Sequence record: OL631479.1
Source: Escherichia phage ECML-10
DNA length: 64,000 nucleotides
Strand: one strand, 5' to 3'
Shown here: positions 24,856-31,084 of the stretch, in pieces
Numbering within the stretch: position 1 is the stretch's first letter
Layout of the letters: every line of letters starts with the position of its first letter
Translations under genes and position numbers: made by a program
The notes under the pieces: model-generated
The model's input: the letters and a program-made list of their open reading frames with translations, nothing else
What the model was told of the DNA's origin: nothing
The model's database searches: none

Positions 24856-26412
24856 TTAATTTTCCATGTTGGATATGGAATTATCTCTGGTTGATGACAT
24901 CTTAGAAGTGCCGTTGCCAGTGGATCCTGCAGCCATTCCATCACCAGCCCTACTGATGTCCTGGCCCAAGAGCTTCATCAGCTCTTCCTGATCCATGTCC
25001 TCGTCAAATCTTTCATCAAACCCGCCTACTTCAAGAATCTTATTAATTACTGCAGGAGTTTTTGGCAAGTAACCTACAGCACCGATCCTCTGGACAAACT
25101 TGGAGAAGCTCTCCATGTCCACTTCTTCAATCAGACCAGGTTTCAGTTTAGGCATATCATCATCCTCAAGGATGATACCATTCAATGCCAGAAGCTGTGG
25201 AATAAGATCTTTATTGAAGGCCTCAGTGATAATATCTATATCACGCTGAACAAAATGACCATGAATAGATTGTTTTGACTCAGACAGAGAGAAGGATCCA
25301 ACGTTATCGTTACCAAGGTTAATAAAGCCAGCACCGAAACGGTCAAGAATCGCCTTCTTACGGGCATCAATCAAATCTTTAGTGGAATACTGCTTACCCA
25401 TACCGTCAACCCCCTTCAGGGTCATGGAGTAAAGCTCTTTACCAGACTTATCTCTATCAGACGGAAGTATAAAGAAACTTTGCTCACCACTATGGGCGTT
25501 TGCTGCGTCAAGCATAAGGTCTGCAACCATTCTCCCTTCCATTGAATTCGGGTCAATGCTGGCCTTGTTCAAAATATTGGAAGGAATTTTCAGCTCAAGC
25601 ACACCACCAAGGTCTTTGGAACAGCCAACAACCTCAAGGTTTTCAATCAGAACTTTCTCACGGAAAGATCTGTAGCAACCTATCATCGGTGACACACCTG
25701 CAGGGTTAGATTCTGTTCCTGACAGGGTCATGAGCATAAGCTTTTTAGCAGGGATGAAAATTTCAGGCTCATTAAAGCCTTTTGAAGGCATTGCAGCAAG
25801 AGGTCCAGCCCAGCGTGCATTCTGAGTGTTTAGAAATGCATTAGGTGACTGATAAATACCTGTCAGTGTTCTACTATTCTTGTCAAAGACAAACGGCTCT
25901 GATCTGGACAAACTGGCCTGAGGTCGGAATGCAATTTTATCAATAAGAAGCATCCCGGCATATTTACCTTCTTTCTCTCTGCGGTATACTTTCTCAAACA
26001 GTGAAAAACCATACTCGTTAAAGGTAGCTGCGCTTCTTGCAATATCTCGAAGAGTTTGTTGGTTTGCCAAATTACGCAAAGAATACTCTATAAGCTCGGC
26101 AGCTTTCTTAGAGTCTTCACTTTTAACATTGTAAAGGATCTTAAAATCATTGAATGCTTTCGTGATGAAAACATATTTTGTATCTAAGGCAGTAGCAACT
26201 GTGGAATCACATTTCATAGTCTCCACTGTGGCAATCAGCTGAGGCCAACGCAATTCCTCAACCATCATAGATTGCGATTCTGCCATAATTTGGGAAAGTG
26301 CGCCAGAACCGATCTCACTCATACGAACATTATGAGTTGGTGCGCCTGCGTTCCCAGATTTATTCACAGTTTTGGCTGTGGCGTTGTGTTTCCTGCGGTT
26401 CTTTTTGGACAC
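24856..26412 (-). CDS. Portal protein
   Basis: 518 aa ORF immediately downstream of terminase, upstream of scaffold/capsid genes. Confidence 0.6.
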   Translation of the reverse strand: MSKKNRRKHNATAKTVNKSGNAGAPTHNVRMSEIGSGALSQIMAESQSMMVEELRWPQLIATVETMKCDSTVATALDTKYVFITKAFNDFKILYNVKSEDSKKAAELIEYSLRNLANQQTLRDIARSAATFNEYGFSLFEKVYRREKEGKYAGMLLIDKIAFRPQASLSRSEPFVFDKNSRTLTGIYQSPNAFLNTQNARWAGPLAAMPSKGFNEPEIFIPAKKLMLMTLSGTESNPAGVSPMIGCYRSFREKVLIENLEVVGCSKDLGGVLELKIPSNILNKASIDPNSMEGRMVADLMLDAANAHSGEQSFFILPSDRDKSGKELYSMTLKGVDGMGKQYSTKDLIDARKKAILDRFGAGFINLGNDNVGSFSLSESKQSIHGHFVQRDIDIITEAFNKDLIPQLLALNGIILEDDDMPKLKPGLIEEVDMESFSKFVQRIGAVGYLPKTPAVINKILEVGGFDERFDEDMDQEELMKLLGQDISRAGDGMAAGSTGNGTSKMSSTRDNSISNMEN

Positions 26413-26436
26413 AAGCTTTACCCCTCAAAACAGTAT

Positions 26437-26463
26437 AACAAAATAGCCCTCGTGTTAGAGGGC
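26437..26463 (-). terminator. Hairpin terminator between terminase and portal genes
   Basis: Minus-strand GCCCUC-UAACAC-GAGGGC stem-loop followed by UAUUUUGUU. Confidence 0.45.
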
Positions 26464-26514
26464 CAGTATCTCCGATTACTCTATTCTACCACATCTAATT
26501 AAGATTGGCAACAC

Positions 26515-27321
26515 TTAGATAAAACGCTTGAACATAGAAGGTGATGAGATTGATGGAATCACACAAGGAAGTGCTACCTCCTCTTTCTCCAGGAAATTAA
26601 TCGCAGAAGCTACACAGTCGGCCCAGTCGTCTTTCCTGTTAAATGTTGATCTTTCCCCGTTGAATTTTTCAAGTTCAGTCAGAAATGCTTCCAGAGTATC
26701 AGGATGGAAACTGGATTTTACAATCCTAACCATTCCTTGTTGGGCAAGATTGGCAAAAGGTGAGAACCTTGTCAGTTTAGATTTGTTGGAAGGCATTGGG
26801 TCTTCTTCAACCCTAAACCCTTCGGCGAGCAAGGATCTGGAGGATGTTAAGAACTCACTCTTACCTGCCTGACCAGGGTCCACAGAGAATACGATTATAC
26901 AATCATCACCATCAAACTGCGCCTGTTTCCTGATGATCACATCTCGTTCACCAGCCTTTTTACAGAACTTACCTTCCAGACCTGTGGAATACCTCCCGTC
27001 ATCAACGTTCTCAGGACAATAATCACCGGACAGGTAATAAAAGCCGTCGCTATCCTTACTTACCTTAACACTGGCTGTAAAGTCAGGAAATTTATTACCG
27101 GAAGTTCTCTCGGTTCCTGCCTTATCCCATGCCCTGCAAGATACTGATCCAAGGGGTACTCTATCGGCATCACGAAGGAAAGATCTTTGAAAATAGTTTG
27201 CACCCTCAGGCTTTGCAAACCAGTTGCCATGAAGAAGCTGGGCTTTTTCAAGCTCGGGCAGACCTTCAAGAAAAGCAAGGTATTCTGGGTTGTCTCTTAA
27301 GCAGACAGGATTATCGAATCC
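26515..27321 (-). CDS. terL: Terminase large subunit, C-terminal nuclease part (putative exon 2)
   Basis: Frame open from 27321 to 26515 (269 codons, longer than the 141-aa track ORF); RAWDKAGT and DFTAS motifs typical of terminase nuclease domain. Confidence 0.65.
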   Translation of the reverse strand, partial: GFDNPVCLRDNPEYLAFLEGLPELEKAQLLHGNWFAKPEGANYFQRSFLRDADRVPLGSVSCRAWDKAGTERTSGNKFPDFTASVKVSKDSDGFYYLSGDYCPENVDDGRYSTGLEGKFCKKAGERDVIIRKQAQFDGDDCIIVFSVDPGQAGKSEFLTSSRSLLAEGFRVEEDPMPSNKSKLTRFSPFANLAQQGMVRIVKSSFHPDTLEAFLTELEKFNGERSTFNRKDDWADCVASAINFLEKEEVALPCVIPSISSPSMFKRFI

Positions 27322-28291
27322 TTATATTCAAAGGTGGTCGCAACACCACCTTCCGCACCTTTACGTGCTGCTGCATGTTACCATGCAGAGTAGACTATAT
27401 CACCACCCATTTCAGGGTGCTTCGCTTTTCGAGCGCCATAAGCTTGCGCCCTACTCCCTCTCGGGATAGTCGTTGAACTACATTACCAATCGTAATTGTT
27501 TGAAATATAGGTGTAAGTCTTACGGTCTTTTATTCCTTTAACAACACTAAAACTTACTCCCCACTTCTTAGCTATTTTATTTACACACAAGACCTTATCA
27601 CTAAGATCCTCGCAGATACCTATTATCTTGTGCTCACTTATCCGATTAGAGGTTGGCACTTTTCTAAAGTTAAACTCTTTAGAAATATCTGGGTATACTG
27701 AGCCATTCTTTATACCACTTACAAGTGGTTGATTGACACCAAACATTTCACAAATGTCTTTTACCCTTGCGCCTTGCTCTAACAGCCTACATATTTCAAG
27801 AGCAGTGGCATCATCCAGAGACCTGTATTTATTGACATAGTCCTTTTTAAGTCCCATTTCATGAGCGTGATGTGTGTTTTCCTCAGGCGTTGTCCACTCA
27901 AGGTTCCATGCGGCGTTATTCAACTTATTACCATCTAGGTGGTTTACTTGAGTTTTTACGCTGGGATTGTCATTATCAACAAAAGTCATAGCAATCACTC
28001 TGTGAACGAGCACTTGGAACTTTTTACCGTCCTCGCACAAAGTTACCATAGCATAGCCAGTCTTTTTCTGCACATTAGGATGGAGGAATTTATTAGAATA
28101 CAGACTGTAAATTCTGCCATCGTATGTAGCACAATAATGATTGTAGCCTAAAAAGCCTAAATTTTTCATTTCAAACATCTCCCTACTACAGGTTCGGAAG
28201 GGTAATTATAGCTGCTGATTGTCCGTTTAGCAATCGGATTTCCCAGCAATTAACGAAGTTATTCGACGTGCATTTCTGCACGAAGCCACTA
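27322..28291 (-). other. Intervening sequence in terL, putative group I intron carrying an HNH ORF
   Basis: ~970 bp between the two terminase halves; same-strand HNH ORF; 3' part contains a GATATAGTCT-like element. Boundaries approximate. Confidence 0.45.
27483..28178 (-). CDS. HNH homing endonuclease
   Basis: 231 aa; HNH motif VNHLDGNKLNNAAWNLEWTTPEEN; located inside interrupted terminase gene. Confidence 0.8.
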   Translation of the reverse strand: MFEMKNLGFLGYNHYCATYDGRIYSLYSNKFLHPNVQKKTGYAMVTLCEDGKKFQVLVHRVIAMTFVDNDNPSVKTQVNHLDGNKLNNAAWNLEWTTPEENTHHAHEMGLKKDYVNKYRSLDDATALEICRLLEQGARVKDICEMFGVNQPLVSGIKNGSVYPDISKEFNFRKVPTSNRISEHKIIGICEDLSDKVLCVNKIAKKWGVSFSVVKGIKDRKTYTYISNNYDW

Positions 28292-29041
28292 TCATTTAAT
28301 GGTTGCGCCTATGAACGAGAATGACAACGGTCTTGGCTTGATCTCTACACCCAGTCCGTTAACCGTGGTGTATTTCTCTATCAACTCTTCTTTAGAGTCT
28401 CCCCATATAAATTCACCGTCGCGTCGGATAAAATATCTTTTCTTACCGCATTTCTCCGGATCTGGATACCCTTCATCGTCCAACCACCATCTAACCAGTT
28501 TGGCAAGCATGTGTTCTGAATCGGGGTTACAGCTGATAACCATTCTTGATGGATACTTTGACTGAGATCGCAGACGAGACATCAGATAGTCTATCTGCTC
28601 CCATTCGAACTGCGTGCCCTCATCGAAGCAAACCATGGTGTACTCAAGCCCCTGATGGTTAAGCTTATCTTGTACATACTCCATGTGGCAGTATTTTACA
28701 ACAGCTCCCTTTTTGCTTCTATCCCACTTGCCAGTGCTCGGATCAAACCGTGGAAAAATGAACTTATGATCCTTCTCTCTGAACTTTGGCTTAATGTTTT
28801 CAGGCAGATCACTATAAATAGCTACTGCTTTAGGCCATAGTCCACCCTCACCTTCCAACTGTGGGGTTGTTCTTCGGAACATAACCACAGAGCTGTGGGG
28901 GTCATCAATAATTTTAAGTGGCATCAACTGCAAGAGGAACGACTTGCCAGACCCTGCGGCACCGCCGATTACCAAAATATCTGCATCGTTTTCTAGGATC
29001 ATCTTCTGCTTTTCAGAACACGGTCCGTAAATCTTAGACAT
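28292..29041 (-). CDS. terL: Terminase large subunit, N-terminal ATPase part (putative exon 1)
   Basis: Walker A GGAAGSGKS, Walker B-like VCFDEG; 249 aa. Confidence 0.75.
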   Translation of the reverse strand: MSKIYGPCSEKQKMILENDADILVIGGAAGSGKSFLLQLMPLKIIDDPHSSVVMFRRTTPQLEGEGGLWPKAVAIYSDLPENIKPKFREKDHKFIFPRFDPSTGKWDRSKKGAVVKYCHMEYVQDKLNHQGLEYTMVCFDEGTQFEWEQIDYLMSRLRSQSKYPSRMVISCNPDSEHMLAKLVRWWLDDEGYPDPEKCGKKRYFIRRDGEFIWGDSKEELIEKYTTVNGLGVEIKPRPLSFSFIGATIK

Positions 29042-29328
29042 TAACCTCTCTCCTTTGGAAACAGTGTTCTAATATAGTCTTGCAAAATGATCAATTTAGC
29101 TCTATCATTGCTACAAGACAGATTATTATCCCTCATAATGCCAGAGTTCACTGCATCTGGCGCACCTTTCTTCAAAGGCATAGCTTTAGCAGGTGGTTTC
29201 ATGGCACCTTCTGGGGGTTTAACAATCAACCTTCCTACATCTGGAGGGTCAATCTTGTATTCTTTCTCAACACTGGTTGCACACCCACATAATAACAAGC
29301 ACGCAATAAACAGTGTAGCAACTCTCAT
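29041..29328 (-). CDS. Putative o-spanin (outer-membrane lipoprotein)
   Basis: 95 aa; N-terminal signal with Cys cluster (FIACLLLCGC), Pro-rich mature region; follows i-spanin-like gene with 4-nt overlap. Confidence 0.5.
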   Translation of the reverse strand: MRVATLFIACLLLCGCATSVEKEYKIDPPDVGRLIVKPPEGAMKPPAKAMPLKKGAPDAVNSGIMRDNNLSCSNDRAKLIILQDYIRTLFPKERG

Positions 29329-30143: not shown

Positions 30144-30221
30144 GTGGTCTCCACGGAGTGATTCGAACACTCGACCTCCTGATCCCAAATCAGGCGCTCT
30201 ACCAAGCTGAGCTACGCGGAG
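30144..30221 (-). tRNA. tRNA-Pro (anticodon UGG)
   Basis: Hand-folded cloverleaf: 7-bp acceptor, T-loop TTCGAAT, anticodon loop UUUGGGA, encoded CCA. Confidence 0.75.
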
Positions 30222-30232
30222 TATTCATTATT

Positions 30233-30307
30233 TGGTGGCCCTGGGTGGAATTGAACCACCGTCTGGCGATTATGAGTCGCTTGCTTGAACCTTCCAGCTA
30301 CAGGGCC
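30233..30307 (-). tRNA. tRNA-Met (anticodon CAU; could be Ile-lysidine type)
   Basis: Acceptor GGCCCTG/CAGGGCC, T-loop TTCAATT, anticodon loop CUCAUAA, CCA encoded. Confidence 0.7.
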
Positions 30308-30308
30308 A

Positions 30309-30384
30309 TGGTGCTGATGGCAGGACTTGAACCTGCAACCTATTGATTACAAATCAATTGCACTACCAATTGTGCTACATCAGC
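30309..30384 (-). tRNA. tRNA-Thr (anticodon UGU)
   Basis: Acceptor GCTGATG/CATCAGC, D-stem GCAC/GTGC, anticodon loop UUUGUAA, T-loop TTCAAGT, CCA encoded. Confidence 0.7.
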
Positions 30385-30390
30385 AAAAAG

Positions 30391-30488
30391 GTGCTAGGTG
30401 ATGGAATCGAACCACCTATGTATTCAACGACTACCTCGTCTATTTTCAGGATTAAAAATCCTCGCCCTTGCCAAAGGGCTTACCTAGC
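30391..30488 (-). tRNA. Atypical tRNA-like gene (~98 nt), isotype unresolved
   Basis: Perfect 7-bp acceptor and 4-bp D-stem, T-loop TTCGATT; anticodon arm has only 4 bp with loop UUUUUAA (UUU) and a ~30-nt variable region. Confidence 0.4.
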
Positions 30489-30596
30489 TCAGTATGTTGA
30501 CCATGTTGCTAGTCGGCGATGACGACTGTAACATTTGATAATCCGGTTCTGCTTCCGGCTTTCGCTTAATTACAAGGTCAACAATATGGCAGAGGA

Positions 30597-30686
30597 TAAT
30601 GGAATCGAACCATCATCGAGTCATCCTCAACGGGACGGTTTTCAAGACCGCTTGAGCACCATTGCTCCCTACCCTCTTTTATAAAC
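30597..30686 (-). tRNA. tRNA-Ser (anticodon UGA)
   Basis: Type II tRNA with long variable arm; anticodon loop CUUGAAA; T-loop TTCGATT; CCA encoded. Confidence 0.65.
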
Positions 30687-30791
30687 AATACTGATAATGA
30701 CACTGATTTTCGAGCAGTTAGTGACTAGTATAAACGACGATAAATATCAATGCCATTATCTGTATGATTTATGCATTTAAAAATATAAATT

Positions 30792-30879
30792 TGGTGGTGA
30801 GTGATGGAGTCGAACCACCAGAATCGCAATGATAACAGATTTACAGTCTGCCCCGCTACCCCTACGGAATTAACTCACC
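30792..30879 (-). tRNA. tRNA-Tyr (anticodon GUA)
   Basis: Acceptor GGTGAGT/ACTCACC, anticodon loop CUGUAAA, long variable arm, T-loop TTCGACT, CCA encoded. Confidence 0.7.
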
Positions 30880-31009
30880 TAAATACTAATATTTAAATTC
30901 TTTTTAAAATAGCTAGTGTTCTCACCACTAACTATGAGGTATCGGTAAAGTGGTTACCGCCACTTGCCGAAGATTTACTCTGCTAAAGTAAGCTACATTA
31001 AAAAGAACT

Positions 31010-31084
31010 TGGCACCCCGTACTGGACTCGAACCAGTGTCAACGGCTTAGAAGGCCGCTGCTTTATCCACTAAGCTAACAGGGC
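31010..31084 (-). tRNA. tRNA-Arg (anticodon UCU)
   Basis: Acceptor with two G-U pairs, D-stem GCTT/AAGC, anticodon loop CUUCUAA, T-loop TTCGAGT, CCA encoded. Confidence 0.65.

Follow-up and report, generated by a model that had tools for sequence, protein, structure and literature searches.

What interrupts the gene for the large terminase subunit (TerL) in Escherichia phage ECML-10, and can an intact protein be made from it? The stretch analysed here (64,000 nucleotides (nt) of record OL631479.1; hereafter the window) holds an ATPase half and a nuclease half of TerL on the same strand, with an insert of about 1 kb between them that contains an open reading frame (ORF) for an HNH endonuclease. 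An initial annotation, made from the sequence alone, had placed two explanations side by side, a group I intron or a gene split into two independently translated polypeptides. Our analysis indicates that TerL is very probably interrupted by a self-splicing group I intron with an HNH homing endonuclease gene inside it. The intron is already known, as the same intron with an identical endonuclease has been annotated and published for phage rV5. All features of the locus lie on the minus strand, and positions are those of the window.

The boundaries were mapped against relatives without the insertion. A query of 2801 nt spans 1822 nt in the intron-free phages FFH2, FV3, Murica and phiWec189, a difference of 979 nt; because these relatives differ by exactly this length at this position, the insertion is far beyond chance. 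Both junctions of the window were aligned to FFH2 (window ...GCAACCAT, intron, ATTCGATAAT against FFH2 ...GCAACAATATTCGATAAT; in a longer alignment, window ...GGCGCAACCAT, intron, ATTCGATAATCC against FFH2 ...GGCGCAACAATATTCGATAATCC), and this fixes the exon and intron coordinates. The intron occupies 27320..28298 (979 nt), is absent from the intron-free relatives and overlaps matches to the group I model RF00028 in each of its halves. It starts with UAAAUGAUAGUGG... and finishes with ...UUGAAUAUAAGG (...UAAGG), the terminal G being located at 27320. The initial annotation had drawn an insert of about 1 kb at 27322-28291; the insert and its approximate size held, but its true edges are 28298 and 27320. 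Comparison with insertion-free relatives, which the annotation had itself suggested, therefore gave insertion points exact to the base.

Exon 1 (28299..29041, 743 nt), defined by ORF translation, Pfam and the FFH2 junction mapping, encodes the ATPase domain with the Walker A motif GGAAGSGKS and the Walker B motif CFDEG and has the 3′ end ...GGC GCA ACC AT. The ATPase half had been described as an ORF at 28292-29041 with this Walker A motif; it is present, spans 249 amino acids (aa) and matches Pfam Terminase_6N (E=5e-17). Its final two codons and stop are intron sequence. Exon 2 (26515..27319, 805 nt including the stop), defined by translation and Pfam, encodes a linker beginning FDNP... and the RNase H-like nuclease domain. 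The nuclease half in the frame open from 27321 to 26515, with RAWDKAGT...DFTAS, is likewise present and matches Pfam Terminase_6C (E=4.8e-7). Joined at the mapped boundaries, the coding sequence (CDS) is 1548 nt long and encodes 515 aa, not the approximately 518 aa obtained earlier by adding the two halves. The product reads ...SFSFIGATI followed by FDNPVCLRDNPEYL..., giving the junction GATI/FDNP. It equals the TerL of FFH2, a single uninterrupted protein of 515 aa, in length and is colinear with it, with one substitution seen by eye. The joined protein thus has the composition of a large terminase, with the 6N ATPase and 6C nuclease domains both present and colinear with the intact homologue of FFH2. 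A PDB sequence search with spliced TerL returned nothing at E≤0.01.

A phage might also do without splicing and translate the two halves as separate polypeptides that come together afterwards. A precedent is nrdA of Aeromonas phage Aeh1, a gene split by mobE. The frame of exon 1 reaches a stop just within the insert, and unspliced RNA could give the ATPase fragment of 249 aa; insertions that accompany HNH genes and do not splice have also been documented (discussion in PMC7344957). Exon 2, however, contains no in-frame ATG, GTG or TTG over its first 126 codons, and no ribosome-binding site was found at its start. The first candidate start is a GTG at 26940, and a protein begun there would be without the RAWDKAGT catalytic region. 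Because exon 2 offers no start for 126 codons, independent translation of the halves is very unlikely, and the insert itself argues in the same direction, since it contains an intact group I core that is supported by covariation and whose ORF-less form scores 92.7-95.6 bits on RF00028. The second of the two explanations offered initially is therefore disfavoured, and the group I intron is preferred. An intein was also considered. The exon 1 frame reaches a TGA and then a TAG no more than 9 nt from the junction, and these in-frame stops exclude an intein; no Hint domain was found in the Pfam scan.

The group I assignment is carried by the RNA. A covariance-model search of the minus strand, a check proposed with the initial annotation, found RF00028 matches in both halves of the insert when run in E-value mode: 28057-28308 (19.8 bits, E=0.022), covering P1 to P6, and 27371-27609 (35.3 bits, E=5e-7), whose reliable portion runs from J6/7 to P9. 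ORF-less orthologues occupy the same position of terL in phages RudolfGeigy (MZ501102) and VB-EcoM-WM (PQ014731) and score 95.6 and 92.7 bits on RF00028, respectively. These introns (268 nt in RudolfGeigy and 266 nt in VB-EcoM-WM) share the insertion site, and their ribozyme core is identical to that of the window outside the P5 loop and P6, where they have a compact palindromic P6a (CCUGAAUAUUCAGG) and the window has a cassette of 732 nt instead. The P1 alignment of RF00028 puts a U·G pair at the mapped 5′ splice site, which follows the U held in the P1 wobble U28299·G28289. The intron ends in G, and exact excision restores the reading frame. The order of the core helices is canonical; the P3/P7 pseudoknot and J8/7 are present, as is P7, the guanosine-binding helix, with its bulged nucleotide. 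As the insert matches a group I core, we did not retain a group II reading.

The helices fall into two segments with the ORF between them. The 5′ ribozyme segment (28207..28302) was defined by the Rfam alignment, the minimum free energy (MFE) fold and covariation. In P1 (28302-28297 with 28291-28286), the exon CCAU and the intron UA pair with the guide UAGUGG. P2 (28282-28277 with 28272-28267) pairs CGUGCA with UGCACG, and P3 (28258-28253 with 27425-27420) pairs CUUCGU with GCGAAG. The hexamer CUUCGU occurs twice; the copy at 28258-28253, adjoining J3/4, is the 5′ strand of P3. P4 (28248-28243 with 28218-28213) joins UGCUGG to UCAGCA, P5 (28238-28235 with 28225-28222) joins UCCG to CGGA, and P6 (28212-28207 with 27482-27477) joins GCUAUA to UGUAGU and encloses the ORF. 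The 3′ ribozyme segment (27320..27482) contains the 3′ strand of P6, J6/7, P7 to P9.2, J8/7 and the terminal G (27320). P7 (27471-27467 with 27397-27393) pairs GACUA with UAGUC and has an extra A-U pair across a bulged C; read from the sequence, it is A-bulged C-GACUA with UAGUC-U. P7.1 (27466-27455) is UCCC-GAGA-GGGA, P7.2 (27450-27432) is GGCGC-N9-GCGCU, and P8 (27419-27404) is CACCC-UGAAAU-GGGUG. P9 (27388-27371) has 7 bp and a GUAA loop, P9.1 (27368-27355) is GCAC-GUAAAG-GUGC, and P9.2 (27352-27331) has 9 bp. MFE folding yields P1, P2, P4, P5, P9, P9.1 and P9.2, and the fold of 27320-27400, which holds the last three, has z=-3.55. Two hairpins between P7 and P3′ are a hallmark of IA-type phage introns. 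P7.1 and P7.2 are present between the 5′ strand of P7 and the 3′ strand of P3 and are 97.7% and 98.6% paired, respectively, in the covariation alignment. On these helices, the intron is assigned to the phage IA type.

Covariation was assessed with a covariance model built from three Vequintavirus sequences and the helix map, P7 being omitted as a pseudoknot. The model was searched on 86 loci, 80 of them from a scan of viral contigs for the pattern CAACGACUA-N50-80-GAUAUAGUCU, and 125 matches were aligned. Among these 125 introns, 95.7% of the cells are paired, as compared to 59.9% in shuffled alignments and 39-43% when the partners are slid by 1-3 columns. Compensatory changes, with both sides altered, are found in 53 of the 55 pairs, and the covariation score is 0.644 (0.160 in the shuffles). 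Each helix in the model, which leaves P7 outside, is 90-99% paired. At the P1 splice-site column, U·G is the commonest pair (62/90 in the family alignment). When the window was searched with the same model, no other intron of this type came to light. The group I intron that had been put forward as a candidate is thus supported by its core, its splice-site signatures, the restored frame, the orthologues at 92.7-95.6 bits and covariation.

Several points weigh against this reading. The two RF00028 scores of the window (35.3 and 19.8 bits) are under the curated gathering score of 50 bits, and an Rfam scan of the whole window at the gathering threshold returns tRNAs only. We ascribe the low scores to the ORF cassette of 732 nt in P6, which splits the model, rather than to absence of the fold. 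P10 is weak, with no more than about 3 bp as judged by eye. Because the alignment was fitted to the structure, the pair counts are somewhat inflated; P7 is outside the covariation figures, and the comparison loci were picked by a P7 sequence pattern. Finally, the only evidence found from reverse transcription PCR (RT-PCR) concerns a different TerL intron, located at the Walker B site of phage CB7. The sub-threshold score of the window taken alone could suggest a decayed intron that does not splice, a terL pseudogene or an assembly artefact, and nothing specific speaks for any of these. Every core helix is intact, TerL is an essential protein, and we noted no other terL in the window. Moreover, in 13 phage records the match extends over at least 80% of the terL query and so takes in the ORF-bearing intron, and the isolates that match this query are cultured phages. 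We regard decay or artefact as extremely improbable and retain the self-splicing intron.

The closest known system is rV5 (V5; NC_011041), which has the same intron at the same insertion site of the same gene, with 98.7% nucleotide identity across the matching segment. Its HNH protein gp066 is 100% identical to that of the window. The rV5 record gives the TerL CDS ('ORF64ABC') as a three-part join that encloses the HNH gene gp066. In a section on 'Introns in terminase', Kropinski et al. 2013 describe the rV5 TerL gene as lying in three segments with a homing endonuclease in one of the intervening pieces, and they credit D. Shub with help in placing the intron (PMC3606486). rV5 differs from the window in an extra ORF-less intron of 320 nt at the Walker B site. 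Outside Vequintavirus, the best core match seen is the bnrdE intron of Bacillus phage SPbeta (SPBc2), which is 72% identical across 86% of the ORF-less intron and scores 92.4 bits on RF00028. The two introns share the order P7, P7.1, P7.2, P3′, P8, P7′ and P9, and P7.1, P7.2 and P3 show compensatory changes between them. The SPbeta intron differs in that its host gene encodes ribonucleotide reductase, it belongs to another phage lineage and the matched copy has no ORF.

Introns in terminase genes are not confined to rV5 and its relatives. Pectobacterium phage CB7 also has a group I intron in its TerL gene, with an HNH protein that is 36.8% identical to that of the window, and splicing of the CB7 intron was shown by RT-PCR (PMC7344957). 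The CB7 intron is located at the Walker B site (GVD/EGTQF), which matches a site that is empty in the window, and not at GATI/FDNP. For this reason, we rejected it as experimental proof for the intron described here and treat it as a supporting precedent rather than direct evidence. A TerL group I intron of Lactobacillus phage LL-H is attributed to Mikkonen & Alatossava 1995, as cited in PMC3606486, and terminase introns are also reported in Jug phages (PMC12880540).

The ORF within the intron (27483..28178) encodes a protein of 231 aa and sits in the P6 loop. It had been called as an HNH ORF at these positions, and the call stands, as residues 57-102 match Pfam HNH_3 with 28.0 bits (cutoff 24.8); weak helix-turn-helix (HTH) matches are also present. 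In addition to the rV5 gp066 identity, the assignment draws on the best solved relative, I-HmuI (PDB 1U3E; E=3.1e-11), the homing nickase of the SPO1 DNA polymerase intron. The two proteins, both encoded in phage group I introns, align through the HNH_3 core over residues 11-154, with conservation of the HNH motif. H80 and N101 align with the His and Asn of I-HmuI, which we take to be the general-base catalytic His and the metal-ligand Asn, respectively. The Asp next to the His in I-HmuI is Asn in the window protein, which furthermore has low overall identity to I-HmuI and a longer C-terminal region, where the weak HTH matches are located. A Shine-Dalgarno sequence, AGGGAG, precedes the ORF at 28184-28179; a second ATG at 28169 is better spaced, and the annotation of phage HdK5 starts the ORF at the corresponding position. 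A 5-bp stem (CCCUU/AGGGA) was considered as a hairpin masking this Shine-Dalgarno sequence and rejected, since shuffled sequences fold at least as well (z=+0.56 and +0.29); translational sequestration therefore finds no evidence here.

The position of an HNH gene inside a terminase gene raises a second question, whether the protein is a working part of the packaging machine and not a selfish homing endonuclease. HNH proteins adjacent to terminase are known packaging factors; the terminase-associated HNH proteins of HK97-like phages are described by Kala et al. 2014, as cited in PMC7344957. The distribution of the window protein points elsewhere. At 95% identity or more, it is found in only 14 phage records, as compared to about 126 that have the terL region at the same level, so the protein is dispensable; this argues against a role in the packaging machine and fits a selfish element. 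Viable sister phages lack the protein or have the ORF-less intron, and these natural ORF-less phages suggest that the ORF can be lost without effect on burst size or packaging. The nearest solved relative is, again, an intron homing nickase. A packaging function consequently appears highly improbable to us. The free-standing ORF in a peripheral loop of the intron and its presence/absence polymorphism are, on the other hand, what is found for a homing endonuclease.

The ORF lies in a cassette of 732 nt (27479..28210) that stands where the ORF-less form has a distal P6/P6a of 21 nt, as mapped by BLAST against VB-EcoM-WM and by alignments. The P6 stem itself differs, being GCUAUA/UGUAGU in the window and GCC/GGU followed by the palindromic P6a in the ORF-less form, and the two forms are therefore related by a swap of modules and not by a clean deletion. 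UGUAGU is present as a direct repeat at 28190-28185, directly before the Shine-Dalgarno sequence, and at 27482-27477, directly after the HNH stop, so that the 5′ strand of P6 (GCUAUA) has two alternative partners, one proximal and one distal. Such a repeat could have been left behind when the cassette was inserted or when the ORF was gained or lost, or it may be due to chance. A sigma-70-like promoter match (TTGCTA-17-TATAAT, 28205..28233; 10/12 in a consensus scan) is located just upstream of the ORF. By itself it is insignificant (7 sites found against 5.9 expected); its TATAAT -10 hexamer sits in the 5′ strand of P6, a strand specific to the ORF-bearing form. One could imagine that the HNH cassette is no fixed part of the intron but an independently mobile module in which the choice of P6 partner or the internal promoter couples or separates endonuclease expression and splicing; we hold this to be rather unlikely.

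From the sequence, we infer splicing, the activity and specificity of the endonuclease, and homing as follows. The whole region would be transcribed as a single pre-mRNA, in which the intron RNA would fold into the P1-P9.2 ribozyme. Free guanosine would attack the phosphodiester 3′ of U28299, which is predicted to be held in the U·G wobble by the internal guide sequence. The freed exon 1 would then attack 3′ of the terminal G (27320), and ligation (ACC AT/A TTC) would give the mRNA for a single TerL of 515 aa. The ORF in the P6 loop, with its own Shine-Dalgarno sequence, would be the source of an HNH endonuclease resembling I-HmuI. Where a related phage with an intron-less terL infects the same cell, the enzyme would nick or cut that allele, and repair templated by the intron-bearing copy would carry over the intron along with neighbouring exon bases.

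The relatives of the window differ in the state of the GATI/FDNP site. A megablast search with 26400-29200 against the phage collection matched 153 records, mostly Escherichia coli Vequintavirus (rV5-like) myoviruses at 95-99% identity; a 25-kb query from the window had a best match of 97.9% in the same collection. On this identity, the window phage is placed in Vequintavirus (rV5-like). The site is empty in, for example, FFH2, JES2013 and Murica, holds an ORF-less intron in RudolfGeigy, VB-EcoM-WM and several MG0656xx records, and holds the ORF-bearing intron in 13 records (at least 80% query coverage), including rV5, PDX, YP-6, SophiaRose and HdK5. A silent exon base at -3 (28301) follows the state of the site, being C (ACC) in 3/3 intron-bearing alleles and A (ACA) in 2/2 empty ones (FFH2 and JES2013). 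The C at -3 pairs with a G of the guide sequence in P1. The A/C pattern fits co-conversion, selection for P1 pairing or immunity to cleavage.

A second intron site is located just after the Walker B motif (the DEG of CFDEG). In the window it is empty and lies between 28616 and 28615 (GAG GGC/ACG). rV5 and RudolfGeigy carry an ORF-less group I intron of 320 nt at this site, with RF00028 scores of 84.9 and 84.0 bits, respectively. JES2013, HdK5 and A142 carry a version of 883 nt whose ORF bears the annotation recombination endonuclease or, in one record, endonuclease VII. The exon base at -1 of this site is T in rV5 and C in the window.

Among the records compared, MG065639-MG065690 ("Campylobacter phage" A142, A141, A140, A13b, C7, C9 and others) are 97-99% identical to Escherichia coli Vequintaviruses over the terL region and 25 kb of the window. 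On this ground, the Campylobacter jejuni host label of these records looks doubtful.

Some features were seen beside the intron. Downstream of the TerL stop, the scan found a terminator-like hairpin followed by a T-run (26444..26465), and rV5 has a rho-independent terminator annotated correspondingly. At 30390-30488 on the minus strand, a tRNA-like gene of 99 nt with a long variable arm lies between tRNA-Thr and tRNA-Ser in the tRNA cluster 30145-31084. It scores 35.5 bits with the Rfam tRNA model, is reported by ARAGORN as 'tRNA-???' with an odd anticodon loop, and has a fold z of -3.17. rV5 has just the six other tRNAs of the cluster annotated and not the equivalent of 30390-30488.

Group I introns were also observed at high density in the viral contig IMGVR_UViG_3300033074_000206 (111 kb, about 30% GC), which has at least 15 above the Rfam gathering score (piece L086, 119-2223 and 3733-7104; piece L085, 7430-8921). 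Seven of them stand back-to-back with 11-100 nt between matches. No ORF of at least 60 aa was found in the seven-intron stretch, a search of the array by ARAGORN with introns allowed gave no tRNA, and joining the micro-exons by hand did not produce an obvious ORF. The contig thus presents a tandem array of group I ribozymes.

The practical value of the mapped locus is mainly in annotation. Several deposited Vequintavirus genomes (including PDX, YP-6, HdK5, JES2013 and VB-EcoM-WM) give terL as fragments or omit exon 2, and the exact boundaries permit a correct joined terL CDS. The principle of homing is well established from the introns of T4, SPO1, Twort and SPbeta, and an empty site, an ORF-bearing intron and an ORF-less intron are the stages usually described for a homing endonuclease. 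In the Vequintaviruses, all three stages are found at two sites of one essential gene, in phages that are approximately 95-99% identical here, and the group would therefore suit as a natural system for studies of intron homing and co-conversion.

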